A stretch of DNA of 43,871 nt from a virus (taxonomy: Duplodnaviria; Heunggongvirae; Uroviricota; Caudoviricetes), in the IMG/VR virus record IMGVR_UViG_2537561979_000006; one strand, written 5' to 3'. Under the pieces are notes generated by a model. The model was not told the DNA's origin, made no database searches, and saw nothing but the letters and a program-made list of their open reading frames with translations. A program made the position numbers and the translations under genes. Position 1 is the first letter of the stretch. The number at the start of each line of letters is the position of its first letter. Shown here in pieces: positions 1-38,446 of the stretch.

Positions 1-19
1 CTATTTGATAAATATTAAA

Positions 20-1315
20 TTAATTTTTCATTGCTTCGTTATGGGGCATGGTTGGGGCAAACTCGCTTAACTGTGTATTTAACAAAGCTACCTGTGCATT
101 ATTGTTTTCAGACATCCATTTTCCGTATACCTGAAATACCATTTGCGCATCTGCATGGCCCATCTGGTTTGCTATAAATGCCGGGTTAGCACCAGCTGTC
201 AGCGACCAGCAGGCATAAGTATGTCTCGACTGATATGATTTTCGATGGCGGAGTCCGGCACGTTTTATCGCTGCGTCCCACATCTGCCTTATTGAGTCAA
301 CGGTAAAATGGTCACCATAATTTTTTACTCTCGCTGACACTTCAGGTTGAAAAACAAAGGTGCATTTTTGTTTTTCTGTTCTGCCATACTCTCTGAGGTG
401 AACATCAATGATATGCTCTTTGCTCAGTCTCGTTAATGTCATCTGACTCCGGAGAGCGTCGATTGCTGGCTTAATAAGATGAATGACCCGATTGGTTCCC
501 GCCTGTGTTTTTGGTACCGTGAAACGGTCTTTTGCTAAATTTCTCCTGATCATCATTGTTCCATTTTTCAGATCTATGTCCTCCCATCCAAGTGCACACA
601 GCTCACCAGGGCGAACGCCAGTATAAACAGAAACACACCATAAATTTTTTGCTTGCTGATTTCTGCACGCATCGATAAGACGGATAAATTCTTCCCGCGA
701 AAGAGGATCCGGAATGGTTCTTGATTCCTTTAATGGCGAGATCCCCTTAAACGGATTATCTGCCAGGTAACCGTTATCAACACCAAACTGGAACACGGCG
801 TTAAGATTTGTCATGTAATTAATTACAGTTACAGCCGATCTCCCTGGTTGTGTAACAATATAGTTACTTTTGGGGATCTGGTATCCAGTCAGTAACTCTT
901 TACGAACCTCCAGTAATTTTTCTTTATTAATCGATGAGGCAAGATTTTTTTCACCGATTATGCTCAGGATATTTTTGATGACGGCACGGTATGTGTTGAG
1001 TGATGTTTTGGCGACTTCAGTTTCTTTCAGTGCCAGAAATTTTTCAGCCAGTTCTTTTATGGTTAAATCTTGTCGGGCCTCACCAAATTTTTCCAGATTG
1101 CGTGAGGAGGGAAACTGTTTTGCATAGTCGAAAACACCAGTTTTTATTGCGTAACAAACAGAGGAGCGTAGTTCACCTGCAACGCGCCTGTTTTTTGCTG
1201 TGTCAGGAACCCCCAGATTTTCCCTGACTCTTACGTCTTTATAAACAAACCAGATACGTAATTTCCCTCCATGGTTTTCCACGCCTGTCGGATATTTCAT
1301 TTCAACTTCTCTCAT
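20..1315 (-). CDS. int: Tyrosine-recombinase integrase of the lambdoid prophage
   Basis: 431-aa ORF; C-terminal R..H..R..Y catalytic-box context (HRKSYQSRHTYACW...GHADAQMVFQVYGKW) typical of phage integrases; sits next to an excisionase-like gene at the prophage end. Confidence 0.85.
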   Translation of the reverse strand: MREVEMKYPTGVENHGGKLRIWFVYKDVRVRENLGVPDTAKNRRVAGELRSSVCYAIKTGVFDYAKQFPSSRNLEKFGEARQDLTIKELAEKFLALKETEVAKTSLNTYRAVIKNILSIIGEKNLASSINKEKLLEVRKELLTGYQIPKSNYIVTQPGRSAVTVINYMTNLNAVFQFGVDNGYLADNPFKGISPLKESRTIPDPLSREEFIRLIDACRNQQAKNLWCVSVYTGVRPGELCALGWEDIDLKNGTMMIRRNLAKDRFTVPKTQAGTNRVIHLIKPAIDALRSQMTLTRLSKEHIIDVHLREYGRTEKQKCTFVFQPEVSARVKNYGDHFTVDSIRQMWDAAIKRAGLRHRKSYQSRHTYACWSLTAGANPAFIANQMGHADAQMVFQVYGKWMSENNNAQVALLNTQLSEFAPTMPHNEAMKN

Positions 1316-1334
1316 TAGTTAGTGTGGCTTTTAG

Positions 1335-1586
1335 TCAAGTAAGATGACGTCTTGGTCTCGCTGATGCCTGGCGCTCAATCCAGCGATCAATTTCTTCCAG
1401 GTTGTAAAAGCATGGACTGTTATCCCATGGCATACCGTCATGAGCGACATGCTTATATTCCCTTCCTTCCATAAACGATTTTTCCCGGGCCTTTTTTAAC
1501 GTACCTTTTTTTATTCCTTTCAGCGCAATTAACTGCTCTTCGGATACCCATTTGCCGGGAGAGACAATCATGATTACTTCGCTCAT
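1335..1586 (-). CDS. xis: Excisionase-like DNA-binding protein
   Basis: 83-aa ORF directly upstream of int; GREY-containing segment (MEGREYKHVAHDG) resembles the lambda Xis KDGREYLFHE region. Assignment from memory of the Xis motif. Confidence 0.6.
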   Translation of the reverse strand: MSEVIMIVSPGKWVSEEQLIALKGIKKGTLKKAREKSFMEGREYKHVAHDGMPWDNSPCFYNLEEIDRWIERQASARPRRHLT

Positions 1587-1658
1587 CGATTTCTTTATCT
1601 CTTACATCAGACGAGCGCCGGTTGCAGAATACCAGTCACAACCGGCGACAGTTGAACA

Positions 1659-3788
1659 TTAAGAATCAGCCTGACTCGGGATCAGTTTTTGCCAGATAAC
1701 TGAAACGTATTTTGCCTGGTAACGGGCGTCATCAAGTGCATTATGGCGCTCACCTTCGAATGGAATAGCCGTTCTGGCATCGAAGTCTATGGCTTTCCCC
1801 AGCTCAACGATTGTGCGTACATCGCGATCGTTGTAGTAACGCCACGGGCAGGGGATCCCCTGCCGTTCGTATGAACGGCGCAAAATCGTGTTGTCGAAGT
1901 TGGCTCCATTTCCCCAAACCTGAACAAAAAATTCACCGGAGTTTTCGTCGATAAATTCTCGCAATTGTAACAGTGCATCATCTAACGGGATTTCATCGGT
2001 CATAATGGCAGATTGCGCTTCGCGTGATTGCTTAAGCCACCATTTAATGGTGTCCCGATCAATGACTCCGCCAGCAGTTTCCAGATCGATAGTCTTACTA
2101 AATTCCGGTCCCATATCTCCGGTTTGCGGATCGAAAAATATTGCACCTATTGAGATGATCGGGGCATCAGGATTTTTTCCCATGGTTTCAAGGTCGATCA
2201 TTAGATGGTCACACGTCCTGCTGGTGGATGTGATTTCGTGATGACCGTTCACCTTAATTGGGTGATCTGCCGTCTCGCCAGTTTCATTATCGCTATTGTG
2301 ATGCTGATTGCCGCCAGTGTTCTCCTTGTGTGGATGTTCAGCGCCTTCCATTTCCTCCGGATCATCTTCCTGAACTTCAACCTGATACTCTTCATCGAAT
2401 GTTTCTTGGTATGTTGCGTCGCCCATCACCGCGCCACAATCAGGGCAGTTGCCGCCGCCGGTCTGACCGCAGGCGGTGCAGACTTTTTCCACTTCCTGTT
2501 GCGCTACTGGTTCAGGCTGTTTCGTTTCTGGCTCGTTTTGTAACGCATTTGGACTGTTTTGTTCCGCTTTTTGGTAGTTCCGTTCCGATTCATGCTGGTT
2601 CTGGTTCACAGAATCGCGGGTCTGGAGCCCCTTAACCCATTTCGGATCATTCGGGTCACTAATCCCTTCAACAAATTCACCACGTGATGCAGCAAGCAAC
2701 TTATCGGCGTCAGGCTGGCTGATATTGGCTGCCTGCATAATTTTGTTTACTTCGCCAGCGGTAACTTTTATCGGCTCTGGTTGTTCTGAATCTTCAGCGG
2801 TATCTACATTTTGCGGTAAGCCCGTGTATGTGCCATTTTTTCGGGCAAAATATTCTTCTTTTGTGATTTCAGTGGCGCCAGCAGCCAGTGCCTTATCCAG
2901 ACCAGAGAGTTTGTTTGCGCGACCGTATTTTTCTCCGTCCTTATCTGCGAAGAGGAAATAGAACGGCCCCTCACGCTCTACAGATGGTTCAGCTTCCGGC
3001 GCGGTTTCATTTTTTGGGATATCAGATACCTCAGTTTCCACTGCATCAGTTTGTGTTTCTGATGACTGGAGAACATCAACAGTGCCCAGGTCTGTTTCTT
3101 CATTCTCAAACACGCCCTTTGTCGTCAGGTATTCGCAGATATATTTGTTCAGTGCTACGGGATCTTTGTGAATGTCGATCGGACGCTCACGGACAAGGCC
3201 AAAAATAGTTTGGCGGTCGTAGCGAAGGGCATCAGGCTGTTTGCGCATTGATGCCGAGATACGCTTCCAGTCTTCGCGGTCGTTGTCGATAACTTCTTTT
3301 TTTGCCCAGCGATGGATGCTGCCGTCAATGTTTCCGGCATCCACATCACTAGGCCAGAGAGCGTAGGCCAGTTCGTCATCCAGTGTTTTCCATGTCTGCT
3401 TGTATTCGCGATGAATGGCAGCAATGACCGGGCTGATTTTTCCTGTTGAATTTTCAGTGTACTGTTGATTGGCTCTGGCGCGGGCGAGATCAACAACAGA
3501 CGTGTATTTTCCGGTTTCCTTGCGTTCACCTTCGCGACGTTTTTTCCAGATGCGCATCTCTGCCTGAATTTCGGGCCATTTAGCACCAGGAATACATTTA
3601 TGCTTAACCCACCCAATGGCGTGCAACTTAAGCTCCGGATACATGGCGTTAACTTCTGGCATTTTCATCAACGCTTCAACGATATGTCCGTCGAATGTTG
3701 CCATGTCTTCCTGCAACAATTCCTGTGCGCTAATAACCATAGCGGAACTGTTTGCTGAGAACACCGTGCGGTGTGTTGATGCAAACAA
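1659..3788 (-). CDS. Phage exonuclease with C-terminal DEDDh (DnaQ-like) 3'-5' exonuclease domain and a central Cys4 zinc ribbon
   Basis: 709-aa ORF; C-terminal MIDLETMG...FDNTIL...HNALDDARY motifs match Exo I/II/III of DnaQ-type exonucleases; CTACGQTGGGNCPDCG zinc ribbon; acidic low-complexity linker. Confidence 0.7.
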   Translation of the reverse strand: MFASTHRTVFSANSSAMVISAQELLQEDMATFDGHIVEALMKMPEVNAMYPELKLHAIGWVKHKCIPGAKWPEIQAEMRIWKKRREGERKETGKYTSVVDLARARANQQYTENSTGKISPVIAAIHREYKQTWKTLDDELAYALWPSDVDAGNIDGSIHRWAKKEVIDNDREDWKRISASMRKQPDALRYDRQTIFGLVRERPIDIHKDPVALNKYICEYLTTKGVFENEETDLGTVDVLQSSETQTDAVETEVSDIPKNETAPEAEPSVEREGPFYFLFADKDGEKYGRANKLSGLDKALAAGATEITKEEYFARKNGTYTGLPQNVDTAEDSEQPEPIKVTAGEVNKIMQAANISQPDADKLLAASRGEFVEGISDPNDPKWVKGLQTRDSVNQNQHESERNYQKAEQNSPNALQNEPETKQPEPVAQQEVEKVCTACGQTGGGNCPDCGAVMGDATYQETFDEEYQVEVQEDDPEEMEGAEHPHKENTGGNQHHNSDNETGETADHPIKVNGHHEITSTSRTCDHLMIDLETMGKNPDAPIISIGAIFFDPQTGDMGPEFSKTIDLETAGGVIDRDTIKWWLKQSREAQSAIMTDEIPLDDALLQLREFIDENSGEFFVQVWGNGANFDNTILRRSYERQGIPCPWRYYNDRDVRTIVELGKAIDFDARTAIPFEGERHNALDDARYQAKYVSVIWQKLIPSQADS

Positions 3789-3876
3789 GATTAGCCATGA
3801 CTAACATATCGGTCAAGTGATTTTGTATGCTATAGCTAACATAATTGATGTGGTAAAAGATAACTCATTGATGATG

Positions 3877-4283
3877 TTATCTTTTATTTGTCCGCTGACG
3901 GGCTTTTAGTAATTCTTCAAAGAGTTTATTGAAGTTTTTTACTCGAGCTCGCATTTCGGCGAGCTGGGTATCCTGTTCTGATTCTGGCAGTGCATTAAAC
4001 AGCTCAAGGAGCTCTAGTTCTTTGGGGGATAAGGTAACTGGCTTCTCAACAGGTGGTGTTGGTTGCTTGTCTTCATCGCCAAATAGAATCCATGTTGGTG
4101 AGCATTGCAATACTTTGCTGAGGGCAAAAAGGTTCTTCCCTGTAGGTTCACTATCACCCCGTTCCCATTGTGATACAGACACATGGGAGATTTTCAGGGC
4201 TTTAGCAAGAGACCTTTGGGTGTGTTTGAGGTTTTTCCGACGATACCTGATGCGTTCGCCGATAGTTAAATTTTTGTTTCCAT
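3877..4283 (-). CDS. dicA: DicA-like XRE-family repressor, apparently frameshifted near the N-terminus
   Basis: ORF from GTG at 4182 encodes the HTH core and C-terminus (SLAKALKISHVSVSQWERG...). The expected N-terminus METKNLTIGERIRYRRKNLKHTQ is encoded upstream from the ATG at 4283-4281, but in a different frame; a T5 run at 4271-4275 (A5 on the coding strand) would need one more base to restore it. Confidence 0.75.
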
Positions 4284-4285
4284 AG

Positions 4286-4350
4286 TTAGCTAATGCTAAA
4301 TCGTATTGACTATGTTTTTGTTAACATCTATCTTGTTAGTTATGACTAAC
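4286..4350. promoter_or_regulatory. dicA/dicC divergent promoter-operator region with two palindromes
   Basis: Inverted repeats TTAGC-taat-GCTAA (4286-4299) and GTTAGT-tatg-ACTAAC (4335-4350) lie between the divergent repressor and cro-like genes. Confidence 0.55.
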
Positions 4351-4366
4351 AATAAAGGTGTTTTAA

Positions 4367-4597
4367 ATGCTTAAAACTGACGCTCTTTTGTATTTCGGTT
4401 CAAAAACAAAACTTGCACAAGCAGCAGGTATTCGTTTGGCTTCGCTTTATAGCTGGAAAGGGGATTTAGTTCCCGAAGGTCGCGCGATGCGTCTACAGGA
4501 GGCATCTGGCGGGGAGCTTCAGTATGATCCCAAAGTTTATGATGAATATCGTAAGACGAAGCGGGCGGGGCGGTTGAACAATGAAAATCACTCCTGA
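4367..4597 (+). CDS. dicC: Cro-like HTH regulator DicC
   Basis: 76-aa ORF divergent from dicA; HTH segment SKTKLAQAAGIRLASLYSWKG; matches the DicC sequence and length as I recall them. Confidence 0.8.
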   Translation: MLKTDALLYFGSKTKLAQAAGIRLASLYSWKGDLVPEGRAMRLQEASGGELQYDPKVYDEYRKTKRAGRLNNENHS

Positions 4598-4916
4598 ACA
4601 GGCTCGTGAGGCTCTGGATGCCTGGATATGTCGACCAGGAATGACACAGGAGCAGTGGCGATGTATACAACTCCGGCTACGGGTTATTCCCCTCTGAACA
4701 GGCGCGTAAGGACTGGCAAAACGCCCGCAAAAAACTCTCGAGGGCAAAGGTGAAGAAACCTGCTGTGGTTGATCCGGACCTTATCTGGTCATCACCTGAC
4801 GGAGAAATACGTCGCTACGACAGTCGCCTAAACATAATCTGTCGCGAGTGCCGGAAGAGCGAAGTTATGCAGCGCATACTGGCTTTCTATCAGGGTAATT
4901 TTCAGGACGTGGCGCA

Positions 4917-5273
4917 GTGAGTGCACCGGCAACCATTCTTGATATGTGCTGTGGCAGCCGCATGTTCTGGTTCGATAAGTCTGACGAACGGGCGATATTC
5001 AGCGATATCAGAAAAGAAGGATACACATTACGCAATGGGAGACGCTTGATTATCAGCCCTGACATTATCGCAGATTTTCGTGCATTATCATTTGCAGACG
5101 CATCTTTTTCGATGGTTGTATTAGACCCTCCGCATCTTGAGAGTGTTGGTGATAACGCCTGGATGGGAAAGAAATATGGACGGCTGAATAAAGATGCCTG
5201 GCGTGATGATTCGCGACAGAGATTTAAAGAAGCCTTTCGGGTGTTGAGGCCGCACGGCGTTCTGATTTTTTAA
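4917..5273 (+). pseudogene. N-terminal fragment of a DNA (N6-adenine-type) methyltransferase
   Basis: 118-aa ORF with a DPPH motif (VVLDPPHLES, motif IV-like) and a Gly/Cys-rich SAM-motif-like segment (LDMCCGSRMFWFD), ending prematurely; followed by ~1 kb of fragmented reading frames. Confidence 0.4.
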
Positions 5274-6425
5274 TGGAATGAAACGCAAATACCGGTAAGC
5301 CAGATTCTGGCACTGACAGACAGAAAACCTGTTATCTGTCAACGAACAGGGAAAAAACGATAAAACCCACTGGATTATTTTTATGAAAGAGGCATCCAGT
5401 GAGTAGATTCGTAAGGCTACAGATACGTATATCTGAATAATTAAATTCAGTTCTGTAAATAAAATTTAATCCTTAACCGGATGGATTTCTGCACCCTCAG
5501 AACATCAGGAGGCCGCCCGAAAGGGCGGTAGTGAAATGCGAAAGTTCAAAATTATTATTGAAACGGGAATAGCTGGTGGAGATTTTGAGGATGTATTCGA
5601 AGTGGACGATGACGCAACACCTGAGGAAATTCATGACGGAGCATAAGAAATTTTCTTTAACTACTGCAATTACTCATACCACGAAATAAAAGACGATGAG
5701 GAAGAACAAAGTGGCTGATTTTTGTTCAGCTAAATATAACATCAGTTTTGAAGAGCGGGATGAACTATTAATGGACTATGGTGAGTTACGCGGTGGAAGT
5801 GCTGCTGATGTCGAATCCTAGCGTGATGACTATGAAGCGGGAAAAACTCCGGTCGAAGCATATTGTGATGAGTGGGGCGATGAATGAGCGAGATTAATTA
5901 TCAGGAAGGGCATGAAACGGCGGGGCAAGCAAAACCAGTGGCATGGCGATATCGCTACGTGAAAAAAGGCGTTACGGACTTTCAGGGGAAGTAGTGGTCT
6001 GGTGACTGGAAATATGTACCGAAAAAAGAGGATTGTAACGACAGGCCGAACTATCAAATTCAGGCCTTATTCACTGCCTCACCAGTCCCAGTTACATCAG
6101 AAGAACTGGTTAAAGCTGTGCACTTTTATGAACAACTAAAACGCGAAAATCCACCAACATCCGGCAACTAGATTAATGGATTAACTATGTCGGTTAAACG
6201 ACCAGCCAACTGAAAAAGCGGAAACCTGATTACAGGTTGCCAGATAAGGCAATGAGCTACCTGGCGCGGAACGGACTGATAAGTATGGGGAATGTTTTAC
6301 GATGAACCTTTAGACTAAAGAGTTTGTAACGCTATGTAAGTGATTTTTTCTGGTTTAGATATTTATATGTCCGGCCAAATTGAGGTGTGTTTAAATGTAA
6401 TTGCACATTGATTGTAGGAGGAATA

Positions 6426-6605
6426 ATGAAAAACGCATTGCAGTTTTTGTTTGTTGCGTTCTGGTTGTTCGCATCATGTATGCCCATCATCTTCACAGCA
6501 AGGTATATGGAAAAAGTTGATGTTTTGATATTAATATTTGGATATATAAATGCCCTTTTTTTAGGGGTGTTCATGGCGGTCATGTGCATTGAATACTGGC
6601 GGTAA
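6426..6605 (+). CDS. Small hydrophobic two-TM protein (59 aa)
   Basis: Strong RBS (TAGGAGGAATA) before the ATG at 6426; two hydrophobic stretches; AT-rich; function unknown. Confidence 0.45.
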   Translation: MKNALQFLFVAFWLFASCMPIIFTARYMEKVDVLILIFGYINALFLGVFMAVMCIEYWR

Positions 6606-6859
6606 ATACAGCGAACTCCATTGGTTTAGTTGGATATTTACTGTGCTGGACAAAAACGGTTTGCGGGGAAATCTTAGTTAAGTAGAATGACTGCGGGTGC
6701 TTGAGGCTATCTGCCTCGGGCATGGACACCAACGGCAGATAGAGAAAAGCCCCAGTTAACATTACGCGTCCTGCAAGACGCTTAACATTAATCTGAGGCC
6801 AATTTCATGCTAGACACATGTAGGTTAGCCTCTTACGTGCCGAAAGGCACGGAGAAGCA

Positions 6860-8300
6860 GGCTATTGTTAACACCAAGCTGTAATGTCCCCTTTGAACCA
6901 TTCTAAAATGTCCCCAGACAATTCTCTGGGGGATTTTTCATGATCAAAGAGACTGTTACGATGAGTCATAAGGAACTCCACCGACTTCAGATTATTCAGG
7001 AACAAGCTGCGGCACGCATTGGCATTTCTATTCGGCAGGTTAAACGTCTGGTGCAACGGTATAGAAATGAAGGGCCTTCTGGTCTGGTTTCCCACCGACG
7101 TGGAAAGCGTCCTAATAATTCCTTTTCTACTGAATTCAGAGCAACAGTAATTTCACTCCTCAAAGGCCGTTACGCTGATTTTGGACCTACGTTTGCGTGC
7201 GAAAAATTGCGCGAGATACACGGTTTATCTTTATCCGTTGAAACTCTCAGAAAGTGGATGATAGAAGAGGGGTTATGGCGTGAACGCCGTCGTAAAATTG
7301 CCCGTATATATCAACGCCGCATGCGACGACCATCTTACGGTGAACTGATCCAGATTGATGGCTCACCTCATGACTGGTTTGAAAATCGAGGCCCCAGATG
7401 TACACTGATCGTTTTCATTGATGATGCCACCAGTGCGTTGATGGCGTTGCGTTTTGTGCCTGCTGAAACAACCCGGGCTTACATGGAAACCCTCCGGGGT
7501 TACCTTAATGATCATGGCGTACCGCTCGCTCTCTACTCTGATAGACACAGTATATTCAGGGTAAATAACCCAGAGCGGGAAGGTGAGCTGACCCAGTTCA
7601 CTCGTGCGATAAAGACACTGGGCATCGAGCCAATCCATGCCAACAGCCCGCAGGCAAAAGGGCGGGTAGAGCGCGCCAATCAGACACTACAGGACAGGCT
7701 GGTCAAAGAAATGCGGCTTCAGAATATCAGTGATATTGAAACAGCAAATGCATGGTTGCCGACCTTTATTGAAGCCTATAACAACCGGTTCGCTACGTCG
7801 CCTCGTACTACTGATAATGCTCATCTTGATGTGCACCATTCTGAAGAGGAACTGGGTTATATCTTCAGCCTACAGGCGAAGCGCGTTCTGTCTAAAAATC
7901 TCACTTTCCAGTACAAAAGCAGTGCGTTTCAGGTACGCAGTGAGGGCCGGGGATATCGACTTAGGCATTCGGTTGTTACTGTATGCGAGAACTTTGACGG
8001 TGAAATTAACGTTCTGTATGACGGGAAAGCGCTGGGCTGGGAAAAGTATGTTGATGGCCCGGAGCCTATACCACTGGATGATGAAAAGAGTGTCCATGAA
8101 CGAGTGGATAATGCCCGTATTGATTTACGCTCAAAATACTATGTTAAACCTAAAGCTGACCATCCCTGGCTTACGCGCCGAACGCAAAGTCATCAGCAAG
8201 TTAAGCCCCCGAAGTTACCTAAAAAGAAGCCTGATCCCGATAAAAAAGATTGAAACCAAGATCGATTCGGTTGAGTGCATATCCATTCATAGGGTAGATT
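6860..8300 (+). mobile_element. Insertion sequence carrying the DDE transposase; boundaries approximate
   Basis: Single transposase gene interrupting the Qin-like region between the dicC side and flxA; terminal inverted repeats could not be resolved by eye. Confidence 0.4.
6940..8253 (+). CDS. DDE transposase (rve/integrase-core type; ISNCY/IS1202-group-like or IS481-like)
   Basis: 437-aa ORF with N-terminal HTH (IGISIRQVKRLVQRYRNEGPSGL), DDE-like residues in IQIDGSPHDW / LYSDRHSIF / ERANQTLQDRL, and a basic C-terminal tail. Family assignment is tentative. Confidence 0.75.
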   Translation: MIKETVTMSHKELHRLQIIQEQAAARIGISIRQVKRLVQRYRNEGPSGLVSHRRGKRPNNSFSTEFRATVISLLKGRYADFGPTFACEKLREIHGLSLSVETLRKWMIEEGLWRERRRKIARIYQRRMRRPSYGELIQIDGSPHDWFENRGPRCTLIVFIDDATSALMALRFVPAETTRAYMETLRGYLNDHGVPLALYSDRHSIFRVNNPEREGELTQFTRAIKTLGIEPIHANSPQAKGRVERANQTLQDRLVKEMRLQNISDIETANAWLPTFIEAYNNRFATSPRTTDNAHLDVHHSEEELGYIFSLQAKRVLSKNLTFQYKSSAFQVRSEGRGYRLRHSVVTVCENFDGEINVLYDGKALGWEKYVDGPEPIPLDDEKSVHERVDNARIDLRSKYYVKPKADHPWLTRRTQSHQQVKPPKLPKKKPDPDKKD

Positions 8301-8689
8301 CTTAAGTCGCGTTTCTGGTGTTCATTTTCGGGTGGTTTGTTACTTGTTTTACCGGGGATATGCCAGAAACGCGCTGAGTCAGTCTGGGCGGTGCGCGTAA
8401 TGAGGCGTTATGGTAAATAGCCTATGCTAATGTCCGCTAAGAGCAAGAAGCGGAAGTTGGCAGTTTTGTGGACTGTCCCCACAAAAGTGACTACAGAAAT
8501 AGTTGCAATTCATAATTGATCATGGGTTGTCAGTTAAACTCGTGGCGATTTAAATAGACTAATTGGGAGTGCGTCCATTACTTATATCTTGTAATGTTAA
8601 CTATCAGAAATGATACAAAGATAATATGTCTTTAAAGAAAAGGCTGATGGCGAAAAGTGGCCCGATGAGGGCCACAATACGGCTGTCAC

Positions 8690-9022
8690 TTAGACGTAAA
8701 TATCAATGGTGCCAGCGGTATTTGTATCGTCTTTTTTCTCTTCTTTTTTATCAGGCTGAACTGTCGCGTCTTCATTCTTTTTCTCTGCCTGCTGCCTTAA
8801 CAACTGCTCCAGTTGAGCCCAGAGGCTTTCAATTTGCTTCTGTACCAATGCAGCCATTTCTTTTTTCTGCTGTGTCGTCATCCCCTCTTCCGATGAGATT
8901 TTCCCAAGCTTTTCAGTCAGCACCTGAATTTGTCTTGTGATTTTGGCTATTTCTGATGTTCCTTCCGGGGCGGAGTTGTTTGAAATAACGGTTGAGGTAT
9001 TTCCCTGAATTGTGACAGACAT
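8690..9022 (-). CDS. flxA: FlxA-like protein
   Basis: 110-aa coiled-coil, lysine/glutamate-rich protein in the position flxA occupies next to ydfV/relB in Qin; preceded by a sigma-28-type promoter. Confidence 0.65.
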   Translation of the reverse strand: MSVTIQGNTSTVISNNSAPEGTSEIAKITRQIQVLTEKLGKISSEEGMTTQQKKEMAALVQKQIESLWAQLEQLLRQQAEKKNEDATVQPDKKEEKKDDTNTAGTIDIYV

Positions 9023-9045
9023 AGATTTCTCCTTTTAAAAAAGCA

Positions 9046-9072
9046 CTATCGGCATGCACAAAAAAATCTTTA
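9046..9072 (-). promoter_or_regulatory. Sigma-28 (FliA)-type promoter for flxA
   Basis: On the minus strand reads TAAAGATT-N11-GCCGATAG, against the consensus TAAAGTTT-N11-GCCGATAA, about 25-50 bp upstream of the flxA start. Confidence 0.6.
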
Positions 9073-9224
9073 ATCGTATTTCTTGTGTCATTAATTGTTT
9101 GATGTTCAGATTGTTTTCCTCGCGGGCTGGCGCGCCTCAGAAAGTAAAGCTTGTTGACAGGGGTAAACGTTCGGCAATAATTTTCTGCCGCATGCGGGTG
9201 TTGCATAAAACGTGTTACGTTCCT

Positions 9225-9530
9225 TTATCGACAGGTCAGGTCACCGCTCACCCGCCGACGAGAAAGCAACACTGACATGCTAAAGCAAAAAATAGATGAA
9301 TAAGTTGAGTTGTGCATATGTAGCCTGACCGTCACAAAGTATATGGTGTCTGTACCAGTAAGATGATGGCCGGACTCTTTAAAAACGAGCTGACCTGCAC
9401 AATACAGGATGGACTTAGCAATGGCTGCTCCTGGCACAAAGCGGACAGTGATCACCGTTCTTACGACTACTTTCTGACTTCCTTCGTGACTTGCCCTAAG
9501 CATGTTGTAGTGCGATACTTGTAATGACAT
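9225..9530 (-). CDS. YdfV-like hypothetical protein
   Basis: 101-aa ORF between flxA and relB, where ydfV sits in Qin; no recognisable domain. Confidence 0.4.
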   Translation of the reverse strand: MSLQVSHYNMLRASHEGSQKVVVRTVITVRFVPGAAIAKSILYCAGQLVFKESGHHLTGTDTIYFVTVRLHMHNSTYSSIFCFSMSVLLSRRRVSGDLTCR

Positions 9531-9545
9531 TTGTAATTACAAGAG
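9518..9545 (+). promoter_or_regulatory. relBE operator/promoter (relO-like TTGTAAT repeats)
   Basis: CTTGTAATgacaTTTGTAATTACAAG repeat/palindrome immediately upstream of the relB start. Confidence 0.55.
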
Positions 9546-9554
9546 GTGTAAGAC

Positions 9555-9794
9555 ATGGGTAGCATTAACCTGCGTATTGACGATGAACTTAAAGCGCGTT
9601 CTTACGCCGCGCTTGAAAAAATGGGTGTAACTCCTTCTGAAGCGCTTCGTCTCATGCTCGAGTATATCGCTGACAATGAACGCTTGCCGTTCAAACAGAC
9701 ACTCCTGAGTGATGAAGATGCTGAACTTGTGGAGATAGTGAAAGAACGGCTTCGTAATCCTAAGCCAGTACGTGTGACGCTGGATGAACTCTGA
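9555..9794 (+). CDS. relB: RelB antitoxin
   Basis: 79-aa ORF MGSINLRIDDELKARSYA...; ribbon-helix-helix antitoxin whose stop overlaps the relE start. Confidence 0.9.
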   Translation: MGSINLRIDDELKARSYAALEKMGVTPSEALRLMLEYIADNERLPFKQTLLSDEDAELVEIVKERLRNPKPVRVTLDEL

Positions 9795-10081
9795 TGGCGT
9801 ATTTTCTGGATTTTGACGAGCGGGCACTAAAGGAATGGCGAAAGCTGGGCTCGACGGTACGTGAACAGTTGAAAAAGAAGCTGGTTGAAGTACTTGAGTC
9901 ACCCCGGATTGAAGCAAACAAGCTCCGTGGTATGCCTGATTGTTACAAGATTAAGCTCCGGTCTTCAGGCTATCGCCTTGTATACCAGGTTATAGACGAG
10001 AAAGTTGTCGTTTTCGTGATTTCTGTTGGGAAAAGAGAACGCTCGGAAGTATATAGCGAGGCGGTCAAACGCATTCTCTGA
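9794..10081 (+). CDS. relE: RelE mRNA interferase toxin
   Basis: 95-aa ORF MAYFLDFDERALKEWRKL...YRLVYQVIDEKVVVFVISVGKRERSEVY. Confidence 0.9.
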   Translation: MAYFLDFDERALKEWRKLGSTVREQLKKKLVEVLESPRIEANKLRGMPDCYKIKLRSSGYRLVYQVIDEKVVVFVISVGKRERSEVYSEAVKRIL

Positions 10082-10152
10082 ACCAAAGCATGACATCTCT
10101 GTTTCGCACCGAAGGTGACACTTCTGCTTTGCGTTGACAGGAGAAGCAGGCT

Positions 10153-10308
10153 ATGAAGCAGCAAAAGGCGATGTTAATCGCCCTGATCGTCATCTGTTTA
10201 ACCGTCATAGTGACGGCACTGGTAACGAGGAAAGACCTCTGCGAGGTACGAATCCGAACCGGCCAGACGGAGGTCGCTGTCTTCACAGCTTACGAACCTG
10301 AGGAGTAA
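10153..10308 (+). CDS. hokD: HokD/RelF type I toxin (Hok family)
   Basis: 51 codons reading MKQQKAMLIALIVICLTVIVTALVTRKDLCEVRIRTGQTEVAVFTAYEPEE. This ORF is below the size cut-off of the six-frame track and was found by direct reading. Confidence 0.85.
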   Translation: MKQQKAMLIALIVICLTVIVTALVTRKDLCEVRIRTGQTEVAVFTAYEPEE

Positions 10309-10376
10309 GAGACCCGGCGGGGGAGAAATCCCTCGCCACCTCTGATGTGGCAGGCATCCTCAACGCACCCGCACTT

Positions 10377-10405
10377 AACCCGCTTCGGCGGGTTTTTGTT
10401 TTTAT
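10377..10405 (+). terminator. Rho-independent terminator downstream of hokD
   Basis: CCCGC-ttcg-GCGGG hairpin followed by TTTTTGTTTTT. Confidence 0.6.
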
Positions 10406-10476
10406 TTTCAACGCGTTTGAAGTTCTGGACGGTGCCGGAATAGAATCAAAAATACTTAAGTAGCGCGCAGGGATAA

Positions 10477-10752
10477 GAGGGATGGTCCCTTAAGGGTAAA
10501 GGGATTGTTCTGGATGAAAAAAGAACCCGGTTTCATGGCGTACCGGTATATAAGATTTGTGGGCGTTGTAATGGAAACCGGTTTAGTCGTTTACCGACCA
10601 CGCTGGCACGACGTCATGTCCAGAAGCTGGTACCAGACCTGACCGATTATCAGTGGTATAAGGGGTATGCGGACGTCATTGGTAAACTGGTAACAAAGTG
10701 CTGGCAGGAAGAAGCATACGCGGAAGCGCAATTGAGGAAGGTGACGAGATAA
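10477..10752 (+). pseudogene. 3' remnant of a Q-type late antiterminator gene
   Basis: In-frame stretch with no start codon encoding ...ICGRCNGNRFSRLPTTLARRHVQKLVPDLTDYQWYKGY... (zinc-binding CxxC plus a Q-like C-terminus); followed ~100 bp later by a tR'-like terminator. Confidence 0.45.
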
Positions 10753-10856
10753 ATGATTTTTGCTGAAGATGGCGACATGATGTTTGCATTTTTCAAAAAA
10801 TATGGATAAAATTTTTTCAACGATGGGCTTTGTATACCCGACGTTAAGAAAAAGTA

Positions 10857-10884
10857 GAAAACCCGCTGATGAGCGGGTTTTGTG
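10857..10884 (+). terminator. tR'-like rho-independent terminator
   Basis: AAACCCGCT-gatg-AGCGGGTTTTGTG. Confidence 0.55.
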
Positions 10885-11173
10885 CTTTAAATGGGGCAAT
10901 GGTAATGTTGAATCTCATCCCGGGACTCATGTCTGTTAACTTATTATTTAGCTGGTGACTTGGTTATTTGCCTGATGTTTAAAATGTTTTCTTCCAGTAC
11001 AATGTCCCTAAACACAATGAGTCTGCTTATTATATTATTAGCAGAGCTATTACGGCCAAAGTACAGCATAAGCTTTTAAAGCCAATCAACCAGTCATCAA
11101 GACAGACGGGGTTATTCATAAAAACTCTCCATGTGTGATCCGATGGGGCCTGAAATTAAAGCTTTAATATAGC

Positions 11174-11386
11174 TCATGAAAGGTAAACATTGGCAGCTGA
11201 AGGGCCACGCAGACCATTTATCCGGCAAAATTCCACGCGTAATCCGGTGGTAATTTCTTCTGCATCGCGGAGATTGAGCGCTGAAACATGAAGCTGGACA
11301 TCGATACGACCATCGGATGGGGTGATAAGACCCTTGCCGCTTTTGCCGTCAAAGGTTTTGACAATTCCTGTCATTTTACGGGACAA
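11174..11386 (-). CDS. cspF: Cold-shock-domain protein, CspF/CspH-like
   Basis: 70-aa CSD protein ([23 protein letters not shown]...) with degenerate RNP motifs, divergent from cspB. Confidence 0.8.
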
Positions 11387-11686
11387 AAAAATTCCTTAAT
11401 ACTGATAACTTGGCGCACTATACACACGTTCCTGAAGAAAGCTATAGTTTTTTGATGGGGTTGAAGATGGCTGGATGTCTAAAATAAACATTGCTTCATA
11501 TGTTCAACTATGCGTTAATGATTGCGTCGGTTTGAAGAACAGACGATATACGAAGTAGTTTACTAAAGCAGTTCTCATTTCAGGTGTTATTCACTTATTC
11601 CTTCTTTGAGTCTCTCCAATTAAGTACGAAGTCGTTTCTGTTATGCAAACCATTTATGCCGAAAGGCTCAAGTTAAGGAATGTAGA

Positions 11687-11902
11687 ATGTCAAATAAAAT
11701 GACTGGTTTAGTAAAATGGTTTAACGCTGATAAAGGTTTCGGCTTTATTTCTCCTGTTGATGGTAGTAAAGATGTGTTTGTGCATTTTTCTGCGATTCAG
11801 AATGATAATTATCGAACCTTATTTGAAGGTCAAAAGGTTACCTTCTCTATAGAGAGTGGTGCTAAAGGTCCTGCAGCAGCAAATGTCATCATTACTGATT
11901 AA
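11687..11902 (+). CDS. cspB: Cold-shock protein CspB-like
   Basis: 71-aa [26 protein letters not shown]...VFVHFSAIQ; long AT-rich 5' leader. Confidence 0.85.
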
Positions 11903-12183
11903 AATTCATCGCTCGTCTGTATACGATAACGAAGAAGGCTGATGCCTGAGTAGAGATACGGACAGAGTAGTGAATATTGGATCTCTTTAATAAAAAGTAA
12001 GGAGGTCCAATACATGAAACAATGGCTAGCATATTTGGCAAAATCTTAATCAGGAAAAGTATGCTAACCATTGTGGTGAAGTGCAGGTTTGCTGCATGAA
12101 TAGTTTTACAGCAGAAGCTAACTGCTGGCATGGCAAAACAAAGTGCGTAAGTGGATGACTCCCACAAAAAGCACCACAATCTC

Positions 12184-12208
12184 AAACCCGCTCAGGCGGG
12201 TTTTTTAT
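12184..12208 (+). terminator. Rho-independent terminator (possibly bidirectional)
   Basis: AAACCCGC-tcag-GCGGG followed by TTTTTT. Confidence 0.55.
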
Positions 12209-12265
12209 TATCTGCTTTAAATATATTATTAAAATATAAAAAATACTTGTTACTAATAAAATCAA

Positions 12266-12436
12266 TCAGGCTACAGCTTTAAGATTTGTCTGGAATACTT
12301 TGTTGCAATGAGGGCAGATCAAAAGGGCACCTTTTTGTACTCTTGAAAAACTGTGTTCTGACTCTTGGGTGCAGTTTGGGCAGGAACATTTAACGAGATA
12401 ATTACGGCGTGATTTTGAGTTTTTACGTTCTGACAT
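12266..12436 (-). CDS. Small zinc-ribbon protein
   Basis: About 56 aa from the internal ATG that has an AGGAAA RBS; two CxxC pairs (CSCPNC...CPHC). Confidence 0.45.
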   Translation of the reverse strand: MSERKNSKSRRNYLVKCSCPNCTQESEHSFSRVQKGALLICPHCNKVFQTNLKAVA

Positions 12437-12655
12437 AGGCTTTTCCTGTATAAATGGCCGTATACAGTACACTAAATATGAAAACATTTCTCGTATTATT
12501 ATTTTATATATGACTTTCTTTCAAAATAATTACCCACATTTTTAATGTGTATGTTTTTTTAGCGCCGTTGAGAACAACGTGTGCTGTCAAAACTACCCCG
12601 TAGACTCCGATCTTTTCAAACATATTGCACCATCCGTGTACATCGGGGTGAGGAT

Positions 12656-12871
12656 ATGAAATCAATGGATAAGTTAACAACAGGTGTTGCCTATGGCACA
12701 TCGGCGGGTAATGCTGGTTTCTGGGCATTGCAGTTACTCGATAAAGTAACTCCGTCACAGTGGGCTGCAATCGGTGTGCTGGGTAGCCTGGTTTTTGGCC
12801 TGCTGACGTATCTGACAAATCTTTATTTCAAGATTAAAGAAGACAGGCGTAAGGCTGCGAGAGGAGAGTAA
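12656..12871 (+). CDS. S21-like pinholin with dual-start motif
   Basis: 71 aa [26 protein letters not shown]...; Met1-Lys-Ser-Met4 dual start; two TM segments; followed by a SAR endolysin. Confidence 0.8.
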
Positions 12872-12875
12872 TCCA

Positions 12876-13183
12876 ATGACTCAAGACTATGAACTGGTTG
12901 TGAAAGGAGTCCGTAATTTTGAGAATAAAGTTACGGTAACTGTAGCCTTACAGGACAAAGAACGCTTTGACGGTGAAATTTTTGACCTGGATGTCGCCAT
13001 GGACCGTGTTGAAGGAGCTGCGCTGGAGTTTTATGAGGCAGCAGCCAGAAGGAGCGCCCGGCAAGTCTTCCTGGAAGTAGCAGAAAAATTGTCAGAAAAA
13101 GTTGAGTCTTATCTGCAGCATCAGTACTCCTTTAAGATTGAAAATCCTGCCAATAAGCACGAGCGTCCTCATCATAAATATCT

Positions 13184-13187
<4 letters not shown>
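12876..13187 (+). CDS. YdfR-like hypothetical protein
   Basis: 103-aa ORF between holin and endolysin, the position ydfR occupies in Qin. Confidence 0.5.
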
Positions 13188-14211
<1,024 letters not shown>

Positions 14212-14573
14212 GGTAATATTAAATCGGAACATTTACATCGCGGAATGTAAAATTTAAATAAAAAGGACTCTTCCATGAGCCAAAATTCCTGAAATCTTAA
14301 GGGTAAGATAAAAGGTCTTAATCAGAATGACACGTTTTATTAATAAATAAAGCTATTCTTTCATTGCTGTGTTTTTCTTTACAAAAGTAATCCTTGCTAT
14401 GGGTGGTTAATCATGCGTTAATGGTGTTCTGGTTTGTTACAAATTTATCTGAAGCAGTCATTGTTATAATTTTATTATTTGTACCTCTTGAGATTTCCTT
14501 GTTGGTTTTTCTCTCTGATATTTTTTTTCGGACCATTCTGCCCAAGGGCTAATTTCTTCAAAAGGTAATAATT

Positions 14574-14786
14574 ATGTCTAACAAAATGACTGGTTTAGTG
14601 AAATGGTTTAACCCTGAAAAAGGTTTTGGTTTCATCACGCCGAAAGATGGCAGCAAAGATGTGTTTGTCCATTTCTCAGCAATTCAGAGCAACGATTTCA
14701 AAACATTAACTGAGAATCAGGAAGTTGAATTTGGTATTGAGAACGGACCTAAAGGTCCTGCCGCTGTTCATGTAGTGGCGCTTTGA
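14574..14786 (+). CDS. cspI: Cold-shock protein CspI-like
   Basis: 70-aa [26 protein letters not shown]...; long AT-rich leader. Confidence 0.85.
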
Positions 14787-14990
14787 GGTAGACAATATTA
14801 CAAACCATATTCACTTTAGATGCCCGTGTTGTCATGGTTCCCAGTATAGAACATCATCTTTTGATGTTTCTGACATGAATCCTTTCGGGGCAAAATGTAT
14901 CTTTTGTAAATCAATGATGATTACATTTGATAATATTTCACAATACTTAAATGCCAGCCGTCTGTCGTTGGATTTAAAAAAGTGAAAATG

Positions 14991-15015
14991 AAGGCTCCTT
15001 CGGGAGCCTTTTTAA
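14991..15015 (+). terminator. Rho-independent terminator at the Qin-like/P2-like junction
   Basis: GGCTCC-ttcg-GGAGCC followed by TTTTT. Confidence 0.6.
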
Positions 15016-15092: not shown

Positions 15093-16136
15093 CTAGGGTG
15101 TGGACACATTGTGGACACTCTGACCACCATTGGCACCCTTCAACGGGTTAAGCGAAATCGCGTCCTGCAGGTACTGAGGAGCGAAGTGCGCATAGACCAT
15201 TGTCTGCGCAATTTTCGTATGACCTAAGATCCTCTGCAGTGTGATGATGTTGCCCCCGTTAATCATAAAGTGCGTCGCGAAAGAGTGTCGTAGCGCATGT
15301 GTTGCTTGTCCGGCCGGTAAATCGGGCTTAACCTCTTTGAGGGTTCGCCTGAAGTCAGCATAACTGGCCTCAGGAAACAGAAAACCTCGTGTTTTGCCGA
15401 CTACGTAAGCCGCAACGTCATCAGAGATCGGGACCGTGCGCGGTGTGTTGGTTTTCGTCTTAACGAAAGACACCCGGTTATGAATCACATTCTCCGCCTT
15501 CAATCGCGCAGCTTCTCCCCATCTTGCTCCGGTACTCAAACACAAAACCGCAATTTTACGATTATCACCTGAGAGCGCAGCAAGTAAGGCGTCAATTTCC
15601 TCAAGAGTGAGATAGCCCGTTTCGGCTGTCTGCTCTTTCAGTTTTTTGAATCCCCTGAATGGATGCTCACCGTTATACAGTTCTGACTCAATCAGGGTTG
15701 TGAACATCCCACCTAGCGTGATCAGGTCGCGGTTGATGGTAGTTGGCTTAATACCTTCACCCCGACGTTGAGCACAATATTGCGTTATCAGGCTCTTGGT
15801 GATCTGGAAAGCGCAAGGGTTTCCGGTCATCGTTTCGAAACGCTCAATTTTCCTGAGATACGATTGACCGTGCTCCTCATGTTTACCTTTCAGCTTCCAC
15901 CATAACTCTTTCAGTTCCGACAATTGGCGTTTGTCCGTTGGTTTTGAAAGCCATTCCTTTGAGTGATGGTTATATTGAGTATGCTTTTCAAAAGCCATCG
16001 CCTCGCTTTTCTTGTCGAACTTCCGACGGATGCGTTTTCCGTTACGCCCAGCCGGTCTAATGTCCACTTCATATCGACCATCATCGAGCTTTTTAACAGA
16101 CATAAAGCCTCCCGATGATGTTACTGCGTACTTCAA
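15093..16136 (-). CDS. int: P2-type tyrosine integrase
   Basis: Close match to P2 Int (KKLDDGRYEVDIRP...GARWGEAARLKAEN...HALRHSFATHFM...LGHT...VYAHF); the true start is probably the internal Met at 16103. Confidence 0.9.
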   Translation of the reverse strand: MKYAVTSSGGFMSVKKLDDGRYEVDIRPAGRNGKRIRRKFDKKSEAMAFEKHTQYNHHSKEWLSKPTDKRQLSELKELWWKLKGKHEEHGQSYLRKIERFETMTGNPCAFQITKSLITQYCAQRRGEGIKPTTINRDLITLGGMFTTLIESELYNGEHPFRGFKKLKEQTAETGYLTLEEIDALLAALSGDNRKIAVLCLSTGARWGEAARLKAENVIHNRVSFVKTKTNTPRTVPISDDVAAYVVGKTRGFLFPEASYADFRRTLKEVKPDLPAGQATHALRHSFATHFMINGGNIITLQRILGHTKIAQTMVYAHFAPQYLQDAISLNPLKGANGGQSVHNVSTP

Positions 16137-20833: not shown

Positions 20834-21763
20834 ATGAGTGTTGCAAGACATCATCATTTTTTATCTCAATGTTATTTGAAAGGCTTTACAAGCAACGGGG
20901 GGAAAAAATCAAAATTAACTGTAATAGATTTAAAGGAGCGCAAAACTTTTGAAAGTAATACACGTAATGTCGGGGGTGTGAGAGATTTTAACCGATTAGA
21001 ATTGGATGGAGTTGATCCAAACTATCTCGAAAGTTCTCTTGCAGAGTTCGAAGGCAGTGTCGCCACTCATCTAAGGAAACTTGAGGAGGGCAAAGATTTT
21101 TCAGGCGAAACAAAAGATATCATTTTAGAGTTTATTTCCTTACTTGCGATACGCACGCCTGCTCAGCGAGAGCATTTATCATCGCCATTGAAACAAATAG
21201 CAAAGTTCATAATGAAATCTTCTGTTAGTTCGGCTGAGCGTTGGGAAGATTGCAAATTAGCTTATGAGAAAGAAAAGGGAGAGTCTTTGCCATATGATCT
21301 CGCTTACGAGAAAATTAAAGATTATGTTGATGGTGATAATTTCGAAATCAATGTAATCAGAGAGTTCATGATAGGCATGGAAATGCAATGTGTACCTGTA
21401 ATTGCTGAGCTGTTGCACCAACGCGACTGGTCACTTATGACCATATCTGATGGGCAAGGAACATTTATAACTTCAGATAACCCAGTTTGCTTAATGTGGA
21501 CTAATCCTGAATTATCACAAGGTCCTTATTCCCCGGGGTTTGGTCTAAAAGACACTTTAGTTTTGTTTCCAGTATCAAAAAATCTTCTTTTGGCAGGCGA
21601 GTTTGATGGTCATGAGGGGGTATTTAGTTGTAATGACGAGCAGGTTGCCATCTTTAACACTTCAGTCATCCGGCATACCGCAGAAAGAATTTTTTCAGCC
21701 AATGGAAATTTCCATTTTTTAGACGCAGCTAAAAGAATGAAGCAAGGTAAAAGCCTAGTTTGA
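20834..21763 (+). CDS. DUF4238-like protein; candidate anti-phage defence cargo
   Basis: 309 aa, AT-rich; N-terminal HHHFLSQCYLKGF and central FITSDNPV motifs resemble the DUF4238 signatures as I remember them; sits in the P2 A-to-cos (tin/old) cargo slot. Confidence 0.7.
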   Translation: MSVARHHHFLSQCYLKGFTSNGGKKSKLTVIDLKERKTFESNTRNVGGVRDFNRLELDGVDPNYLESSLAEFEGSVATHLRKLEEGKDFSGETKDIILEFISLLAIRTPAQREHLSSPLKQIAKFIMKSSVSSAERWEDCKLAYEKEKGESLPYDLAYEKIKDYVDGDNFEINVIREFMIGMEMQCVPVIAELLHQRDWSLMTISDGQGTFITSDNPVCLMWTNPELSQGPYSPGFGLKDTLVLFPVSKNLLLAGEFDGHEGVFSCNDEQVAIFNTSVIRHTAERIFSANGNFHFLDAAKRMKQGKSLV

Positions 21764-21978
21764 TAGTGGTTTTTTATGGGTTTCCGGGAAGAATTCTACT
21801 CTTAACCAGTGTTCGTAAAATGATTACCTGTTATAAGAGTTTTTCATTTTTAGGTGCGCCTAATAATGCATTTAATTGCATGTGGTTTTATAGGGGACGA
21901 TTCGCCTGCTCTATCCAGCGCTGGTGTGATTTCAATGCTAACGTGCATGTGCATCAAAATAGCCCCATTAAGCGGGCA

Positions 21979-21997
21979 GGCGAGGCGGGGATAGCAC
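21979..21997. other. P2-type cos site (19-nt cohesive-end sequence)
   Basis: GGCGAGGCGGGGATAGCAC, one mismatch from the P2 cohesive end GGCGAGGCGGGGAAAGCAC as I recall it; located just beyond the 3' end of Q as in P2. Confidence 0.6.
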
Positions 21998-22162
21998 TGC
22001 GCGCCGGGTGTGGTGACAGGATTTATTTTACGCGTCTGTGCGCGTCGTGGGGGCGCGCTGTGATGTGAAGTCGGTCAAGGTGATGTCGGGCGTTTGCGTC
22101 GCGTGCGCGGCGTCTGGCTTGCTCTGAGAATGTGCCGCCCGTAGGCGGCATTTTTGGCAGGT

Positions 22163-27961: not shown

Positions 27962-28467
27962 ATGACGACACTGATTATTGAGCCAAAAAAAGAGCCGCAG
28001 GACGTGCCGGGCGTGGTGATACCGCCACCTGGCGTGAGCGAGCCGGTAATCAAAAACACCCCGTTTTTCCTGACGTTGATCCGAAGCGCGTGCGGGAAGA
28101 AATGCGACTGGAGCAGACCGTTTCCCCCGTGCGCCTGCGCCGGGCGATTAAGACCGCGATCGCGGAGACTAACGCGGAGCTGAGCGACTGGCGCGAAAGT
28201 CAGCTCGATGCCGGTTACGCCACGCTGGCGGAAGTCCCGACCGACAAGCTCGACGGCGAAAGCGTGCGCGTTTTCCACTACTTCAACGCCGTGTGCTCGA
28301 TGACGACGGCCACGCTTTATGAACGTTTTCGCGGCGTGGATGCGACCACCAAAGGGGACAAAAAAGCCGACAGCATCGACAGTACTATCGATGAAATGTG
28401 GCGGGATATGCGCTGGTCTGTGGCGCGCATCCAGGACAAAGCGCGCTGCATTGTGGGGCAAATCTGA
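27962..28467 (+). CDS. L: P2 gpL-like head completion protein, apparently frameshifted
   Basis: The span 27962-28467 is 506 nt, not a multiple of 3. The N-terminal part is in one frame (27962-28183) and the rest in another (to 28467); the switch maps to a T5 run at 28064-28068, and one extra T would give a continuous ~169-aa protein. Confidence 0.7.
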
Positions 28468-30814: not shown

Positions 30815-31098
30815 ATAAGATTTAAGTGTGTTATGTGTTGTATTTATTGCCAGTAAGTCATAAATGTTCTATCTTCACTATCTAATTGTCTTGGGTGTTT
30901 TTATATTATTTGATTGTGATGGGGTAATGTCCTCATTACACCTTTTTCGATAACATGTTCGGGAGTCTAGGCGTTTGCCGTATTAGAACGATTTTTTTAA
31001 ATTAGCATATCAGATTTATTGTGATAGATATGTTTTTGTTGTATTTTTAACACCCTCAGATTTTTCTTTCCCTTTTTTAAATTTTAACATGTTGTGCT

Positions 31099-36521: not shown

Positions 36522-37117
36522 TGGCAAAAGCGACACTTAACAAACAGGGCATTACCACAAAAGCCGGTGATATGACGGTTTATAACTATGACGGTGAAAC
36601 CCGCGAATATCTGACGTCCTCTGTCGAGTTTCTGGCGCTGGGCGTGGGGATTCCTGCTAATTCCTGCACCGATGCACCGGTCGAAAAAAAGGAGGGTTTC
36701 GCGGTGTGCCGAGCGGCCAGTCTTGACGGGTGGGAGTATGTCGCAGACCATCGCGGTGAGACGGTTTATGACACGGAAACCGGTCAGCCGGTCAACATTA
36801 CCGCACCCGGTGACTATGCCCCCGGTGTAACTACGTTTGCACCGTCTACCCCCTGTGACCGCTGGAACGGTAGCGAATGGGTCACGGATAAGGACGCGCA
36901 GAAAAACGGTCAGGTTAAGGAGGCAGAACAGAAAAAATCCGCGCTGCTGAATAAGGCACAAAGCACTATCAGCCTGTGGCAGACTGAGCTGCAGCTCGGC
37001 ATCATCAGCGACGATGACAAGGCCAGCCTGATTGCGTGGATGAAATACATTCAGTCGCTGAACGTGATCGACACCTCTGCTGCGCCGTATATTGAGTGGC
37101 CGGAAAGACCTGAATAA
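36521..37117 (+). CDS. G: Tail fibre assembly chaperone (gpG/Tfa family)
   Basis: 198 aa; conserved Tfa C-terminus (DDDKASLIAWMKYIQSLNVIDTSAAPYIEWPERPE). Confidence 0.8.
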   Translation: MAKATLNKQGITTKAGDMTVYNYDGETREYLTSSVEFLALGVGIPANSCTDAPVEKKEGFAVCRAASLDGWEYVADHRGETVYDTETGQPVNITAPGDYAPGVTTFAPSTPCDRWNGSEWVTDKDAQKNGQVKEAEQKKSALLNKAQSTISLWQTELQLGIISDDDKASLIAWMKYIQSLNVIDTSAAPYIEWPERPE

Positions 37118-37122
37118 ACGAA

Positions 37123-38434: not shown

Positions 38435-38446
38435 GGAGCTCAGAGC

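Follow-up and report, generated by a model that had tools for sequence, protein, structure and literature searches.

The repressor gene dicA of a Qin-type prophage is split after its fourth codon in the draft genome of Escherichia coli TA007, and this break is probably a homopolymer undercall, in which a run of six T (T6) was read as five (T5), rather than a mutation of the organism. The sequence under study (the window) is a stretch of 43,871 nucleotides, IMG/VR record IMGVR_UViG_2537561979_000006, to which two loci of the TA007 draft (L008 and L059; GCA_000190975.1, scaffold GL872107.1) are 100% identical. DicA is a C2-like repressor of the Qin cryptic prophage that represses the dicBF operon (PMC6832061), and it belongs to the 'essential' phage repressors whose presence in E. 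coli is variable (PMC11481867); its conditional essentiality has been documented (PMC6832061, PMC11481867). An original prediction, made from the letters of the window, had set out both an artefactual and a biological account of the break and had chosen neither.

A frame break at the start of dicA

The minus strand of the window has the sequence ...GCTAACT ATG GAA ACA AAA ATT TAA CTA TCG GCG..., and the ATG that had been proposed to open the repressor (METK...) leads after five codons, METKI*, to a stop (Table 1). The HTH frame lies at an offset of -1; it is open from 4320 to a stop at 3879-3877 and reads ...NKNLTIGERIRYRRKNLKHTQRSLAKALKISHVSVSQWERG...RTNKR*. As written, the dicA open reading frame (ORF) is split after codon 4, at a T run one base shorter than in all references (T5 against T6). 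The original prediction had placed the start and the HTH region in different frames across this run and had proposed that one added base restores DicA, and both statements hold: a single T inserted into the run gives an uninterrupted 135-aa protein that is K-12 DicA but for Ala84Thr. The frame break is thus confirmed in the sequence as given; its existence in the organism is another matter.

The restored protein scores 234 bits against NCBIfam NF007257, 'transcriptional repressor DicA' (curated cut-off, 101 bits), over profile positions 2-135, and its HTH_3 domain is complete, with residues 12-66 covering positions 1-55 of the 55 in the profile. An unbroken frame of some 135 codons that encodes a full Cro/CI-type HTH is absent from the window, whereas it is present in 24 or more clonal relatives.

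Translation from the internal GTG at 4182 had been put forward as a way in which a repressor might survive. The ORF itself exists and is the longest canonical one left in the HTH frame, which has no ATG, GTG or TTG upstream of 4182-4180; its 101-aa product scores 180.8 bits on NF007257, and so passes as DicA, but only over profile positions 34-135. It matches HTH_3 only at positions 25-55, and positions 1-24, comprising helices 1-2 and the beginning of the recognition helix, are missing; by inspection, no Shine-Dalgarno-like sequence precedes the GTG, and among homologues there is no lineage in which the GTG-start form is the rule. Judged by its domain content, the GTG-initiated product would not be a DNA-binding repressor, and a naturally shorter DicA is the least credible of the readings considered here, with a probability close to nil.

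Table 1. Features of the window that bear on the dicA break, with differences private to the TA007 assembly
Feature	Position	Strand	Basis or remark
dicA start remnant, five codons (METKI*); ATG 4283-4281, stop 4268-4266	4266-4283	-	window sequence
dicA run in codons 4-5, A5 on the coding strand and T5 on the plus strand; private loss 1 (T6 to T5)	4271-4275	-	comparison with relatives, which have T6
Remaining dicA in the -1 frame, N5 to R135 plus stop; whole HTH and C-terminal domain	3877-4272	-	
GTG-start ORF, 101 aa	3877-4182	-	
DicA Ala84Thr, lineage marker; plus-strand T where K-12 has C	4035	-	not private to the assembly
dicC, Cro-like, 76 aa, divergent from dicA	4367-4597	+	PF14549 P22_Cro
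1989-bp deletion: ydfA-ydfB-ydfC-dicF-dicB-ydfD and 5' end of the exonuclease gene	junction 3740/3741		common to many strains
1.59-kb deletion: most of the ydaT-like toxin gene, O-like gene, 5' end of DUF977	junction 4653-4655		3-bp overlap; lineage-wide
Private loss 2, gpL (P2-type, head completion), T6 to T5	28064-28068	+	
Private loss 3, T7 to T6, intergenic	31073-31078	+	comparison with L038
Private change, GGGGC to GGGCG	37663-37664	+	GGGGC in six relatives
Private loss 4, A5 to A4, frameshifting the tail-fibre C-terminal remnant	42021-42024	+	

Lineage and prophage architecture

Positions 1-15013 and 41933-43871 of the window belong to a Qin-type prophage, on its rspB side, and are about 100% identical to E. 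coli O15_8X and B-JRPT-4119; positions 15013-41933 are a P2-like prophage lying inside Qin and cut off past its tape-measure gene. The P2-like insertion is at ynfR, with int at 15099-16103 on the minus strand and the tape-measure gene ending at 41926. Missing are U, D and ogr together with about 6 kb of Qin; the P2-Qin junction, which joins a tail-fibre C-terminal remnant, tfaQ and pinQ, also occurs in GCA_002109875.1, GCA_039656985.1, GCA_002002775.1 and Logan assembly ERR4189506, and an intact version of the inserted phage was found at three loci (L006, L007 and L038).

Several other features of the two prophages were recorded. An alignment of gpA to strain A15 covers 629 of 758 residues; a further frameshift was considered as the cause and rejected, given that close relatives encode the same shorter gene in a stretch identical to the window. 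The P2 hotspot between gpA and the portal gene carries cargo (20834-22068): a 309-aa protein, which matches the PADLOC defence model DUF4238-Pers (718 bits) and PF14022 over its full length, and after it a 102-aa ORF with no family match. Between the P2 genes S and V, a 598-aa ORF (31117-32913) is 62% identical to a hypothetical protein in the same position in E. coli A15 and has no match in Pfam or PADLOC. Rfam matches above the gathering score lie within 6695-6866, 11526-11918, 14428-14813 and 42401-42599, and comprise a sok-like antitoxin RNA, two cspA-type thermoregulator leaders (cspB and cspI) and an IS009 sRNA inside tfaQ.

Around dicA, the lineage has lost DNA on both sides (Table 1). 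The downstream dicBF operon that DicA controls is absent, ydfA through ydfD having been deleted in the lineage, and the Rfam scan of the window returned no match for DicF. Elsewhere in E. coli, Qin remnants (L021, L025 and L027-L029) have lost dicA, dicC and dicB together, and the ydaT-like gene beside dicC shows several independent truncations (L017, L018 and L019); the Qin immunity region is one that decays repeatedly. A joint reading of Ala84Thr, the frameshift and the ydaT-O deletion as the outcome of selection on the immunity region or dicA was rejected, since Thr84 and the deletion are lineage-wide and the run-length change alone is private.

These losses frame the principal alternative, that dicA is a genuine pseudogene in TA007, with a frameshift private to the strain and tolerated because the targets of DicA had already gone. 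The known toxic outputs of DicA loss (dicB, dicF and ydfD) and the ydaT-like gene are missing from the window, so that a real frameshift would be tolerated or neutral. The naturally occurring remnants without dicA, dicC and dicB accord with this account, as do the documented repression of dicBF by DicA and the conditional essentiality of the repressor.

Private differences from clonal relatives

Clonal relatives were retrieved by an exact look-up of the restored DicA-Thr84 sequence, which gave 17 contigs; an ISNCY-like transposase had proved too ubiquitous to serve as an anchor for relatives with the P2 junction. The relatives stem from NCBI drafts, ENA metagenome assemblies and Logan assemblies, with at least 24 contigs read and eight shown (L030-L037), and the restored sequence stands exactly, under the name DicA, on 17 to 24 or more public contigs. 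At least 24 clonal contigs share DicA Ala84Thr, the ydaT-O deletion and the dicBF deletion, and all of them have T6 and a 135-aa dicA. The eight contigs shown all carry T6 (8/8), and their spacing from dicC to the methyltransferase gene is that of the window, reflecting the same ydaT-O deletion.

Alignment to these and other relatives leaves very little that is peculiar to the window. Over positions 1-14283 (14.3 kb) its sole difference from L031 is the missing T, and save for that base it is identical to L032 (11.6 kb), L035 (11.4 kb) and L036 (6.8 kb). From 15126 to 35978, L038 differs at two places only, both of them single-T losses in the window (28064 and 31073), and over 36479-43871 two further relatives (L010 and L012) differ only at 42021 and 37663-4. 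The census over 42.5 kb yields five private differences, all of the homopolymer or run-length type, and ordinary private substitutions relative to the clonal relatives number zero. Runs of at least four contain 7.7% of the bases, and the chance that five of five private differences fall there is p ~ 3e-6, assuming uniform placement. About 3% of the A/T hexamers were hit in the TA007 assembly, a rate at which a hit on the T6 of dicA is unremarkable.

The consequences of the other private changes point the same way. Loss of a T splits gpL at residue 36 into ORFs at 27962-28069 and 28066-28464; with one T restored, the 168-aa gpL occurs exactly on 17 contigs, and the broken 125-aa fragment (28090-28467) is on record only as EGB68996.1, a 'phage head completion protein' of E. 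coli TA007. At 37663-37664 a G leaves its run and reappears past the next base, changing sheath residue 142 from Leu to Val, and this V142 variant is recorded solely in GCA_000190975.1. An internal control for draft quality comes from ADKA01 (L009/L031; GCA_002109875.1, ADKA01000036.1), a second old draft of this clone, which has T6 at dicA and run-length indels of its own, at window-equivalent positions 39307 (T6 to T5), 42453 (A6 to A5) and 42867/42873.

It is this combination, five private differences of the run-length type and no substitutions, that carries the artefact reading, being the signature of flow-based (454-type) sequencing. The original prediction had suggested that the break might flag homopolymer errors in the assembly, and the four further private differences of that type favour this side of it. 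Against it, genuine single-nucleotide deletions favour homopolymers too, all five changes lie in prophage DNA that was already defunct, where real mutations would be neutral, and the three longest runs of the window, each of 8 nt, are unaffected. A genuine frameshift in TA007 must nevertheless be reconciled with an intact gene in all of the 24 or more relatives and with four single-base run losses and a GGGGC to GGGCG change set against zero substitutions in 42.5 kb. We know of no mutational spectrum that gives this combination; under mismatch-repair deficiency, transitions outnumber indels. A strain-private pseudogene is for these reasons unlikely, though of the rival accounts it has the most in its favour.

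The five-T allele in other data

Outside TA007 the T5 allele is rare. It was found in none of the 726 complete E. coli genomes that hold the dicA stretch, in none of the GTDB representatives and in no metagenome contig, against 18 with T6 in a control scan; among IMG/VR contigs, 53 of 55 have T6 and two have T5. T5 and Thr84 are found together only in the window (TA007) and in the Logan assembly SRR024333; the combination is private to one assembly or read set, with the clonal relatives in agreement on T6.

The Logan record deserves particular attention. The exact 101-aa product appears outside the source assembly on one record, contig SRR024333_859, which is 100% identical to window positions 1206-5356, including T5, Thr84 and the deletion junction. 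Its reproduction of T5 in a read-derived reassembly counts for a genuine frameshift and against an artefact, and it implies that the reads themselves carry T5, placing any error in the reads and not in the assembler. If SRR024333 were Illumina data, the dicA frameshift would be real. Private variants sought in order to tie SRR024333 to TA007, the 73-aa gpL and 76-aa stf fragments, returned no record, and a literature search for SRR024333 matched no paper, while of four matches for TA007 none appeared to concern its sequencing. As grounds for refuting it, the original prediction had named reads unambiguously in favour of five T together with a functional shorter DicA, or homologues that begin at the GTG; the reassembly does show T5, and no lineage of homologues begins at the GTG.

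Truncated forms turn up sporadically in every background examined, at no more than about 2%: contigs with the 101-aa product and with full-length DicA number 21 and at least 1000, 4 and at least 1000, and 1 and 17 to 24 or more, according to background. The 21 contigs of the K-12 (Ala84) background (35 collection blocks) mostly show A6 to A5 at the dicA run, with one A7, and the others have different lesions or are artefacts of contig ends, N-gaps or adapters. The A5 contigs are noisy, with three run losses in 2.9 kb (L043), four in 3.8 kb (L056) and, relative to MG1655, two in 9.0 kb (L051) and two in 5.6 kb (L054), and with no substitutions in any of the four. Recurrence at the A6 of dicA is in part a selection effect, because a frameshift can be recovered by the look-up only if it lies upstream of the GTG, a region whose longest run is A6.

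Three MG1655-derived Logan contigs stand apart from this pattern. L055 has lost a G outside any run, L058 combines A3 to A2 with a deletion that spans dicF to int, and in L053 A7 is accompanied by a 7.6-kb deletion between dicC and rrrQ, dicB being retained; the N-terminal frameshifts of dicA in these three are probably genuine. The pairing in L058 of a dicA frameshift with loss of DNA from dicF to int lends some support to a genuine frameshift in TA007 as well.

The two IMG/VR contigs with T5 are UViG_2534682080_000007 (L079, 6012-6044) and UViG_2526164632_000027 (L080, 4549-4581). Both are diverged Qin-like contigs, mutually nearest relatives at 97.3%, with no close T6 relative by which their error load could be gauged. 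The dicB gene (87-89% identical to K-12 DicB) and all neighbours are intact, including an 823-aa exonuclease in one frame, which tells against an artefact there, and T5 may be genuine in some strains. It is not an inherited allele of this sublineage, an idea rejected on the counts: the full-length Asp variant of DicA, as in L080, is on at least 1000 contigs, against 4 with the truncated form.

The recurrence of T5 across backgrounds, the existence of one T7 allele and the intact surroundings of T5 in L079 and L080 are the observations that would suit a more elaborate account. In it, T5 would be genuine and the A6 tract in codons 4-5 a slippage hotspot by which the Qin repressor is crudely and reversibly switched on and off, with T5 and T7 alleles arising sporadically across E. 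coli backgrounds, those strains that carry dicB (L079 and L080) included; residual DicA might then come from a -1 slip in the ribosomal P site on A AAA A. We hold this to be very improbable. Less probable still in our estimation is the more specific proposal that the tract is a slippage-prone switch whose reversible T5 and T7 states modulate DicA, and hence dicBF, or that T5 mRNA still yields DicA when tRNA-Lys slips by -1 in the P site. A shift into the -1 frame past AAA does restore the exact wild-type sequence, METK-N-LTIG. Against this, the recurrence is for the most part an effect of selection by the look-up, with noisy platforms contributing, T5 is missing from the complete genomes, and the truncated forms are scarce in each background and not inherited within a sublineage. 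A conserved two-frame arrangement is likewise lacking, with a single frame (T6) in all 726 complete genomes and in 53 of 55 IMG/VR contigs, and six bases make a short run for phase variation. The canonical heptamer X XXY YYZ is also absent: the mRNA reads A AAA AUU, which by inspection leaves the A-site codon AUU unable to pair anew in the -1 frame. Taken together, anything more exotic than an artefact or a real but neutral frameshift keeps only a very small share of the probability.

Origin and consequences of the probable error

A homopolymer undercall in the TA007 reads is therefore the explanation that we favour. From the pattern of errors we infer that these reads were flow-based (454-type), and we take the Broad E. 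coli drafts of that period to be 454/Newbler assemblies. On such a platform the length of a run would be read from one flow signal, giving undercalled runs, and out-of-phase extension would carry a base past its neighbour, as in the change from GGGGC to GGGCG. Errors of 454 sequencing have been found to be position-specific, exceeding 50% at some positions (PMC3116506), and asynchronous extension has been described as producing a paired insertion and deletion that mimic mismatches (PMC3711422). Where position-bound errors dominate the reads, a second assembler working on the same data would be expected to repeat T5, and the organism would carry a normal DicA repressor.

If this is correct, the TA007 draft GCA_000190975.1 carries about one run-length error per 9 kb, and other TA007 genes that appear 'frameshifted' or 'truncated', such as gpL, call for resequencing before they are taken for pseudogenes. 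The scattered 101-aa 'DicA' entries of protein databases would mostly be errors of the same kind. Should the frameshift instead prove real, it would be a minor case of a known principle, in which the repressor of a cryptic prophage is essential only while toxic targets (dicB/dicF, ydfD and the ydaT-like gene) remain and decays after they have been deleted.

Comparison with known systems

RacR/YdaS-YdaT and other cryptic-prophage repressors are essential only while they silence toxic neighbours, and the same logic applies to DicA; dispensability once the targets are lost is seen in the Qin remnants without dicA, dicC and dicB, a likeness that is relevant only if the frameshift is real. K-12 DicA (WP_000448564.1), the C2/CI-type repressor of the Qin cryptic prophage, is identical to the restored protein of the window except at residue 84, and the two loci share both the divergent partner dicC and the intergenic region; they differ in that the dicBF operon and the ydaT-like gene, which flank dicA/dicC in K-12-type Qin, are both missing from the window.

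A further likeness is to the errors of flow sequencing (454 and Ion Torrent), namely homopolymer undercalls and asynchronous-extension (CAFIE) errors. The points of difference are that the three 8-nt runs of the window are intact and that the platform of the TA007 reads is one that we assign from their errors. The features in common are these: each private difference is a run of 5-7 shortened by one or a base displaced beside a run, private substitutions are lacking, and the sister draft ADKA01 shows the same kind of error at other positions.
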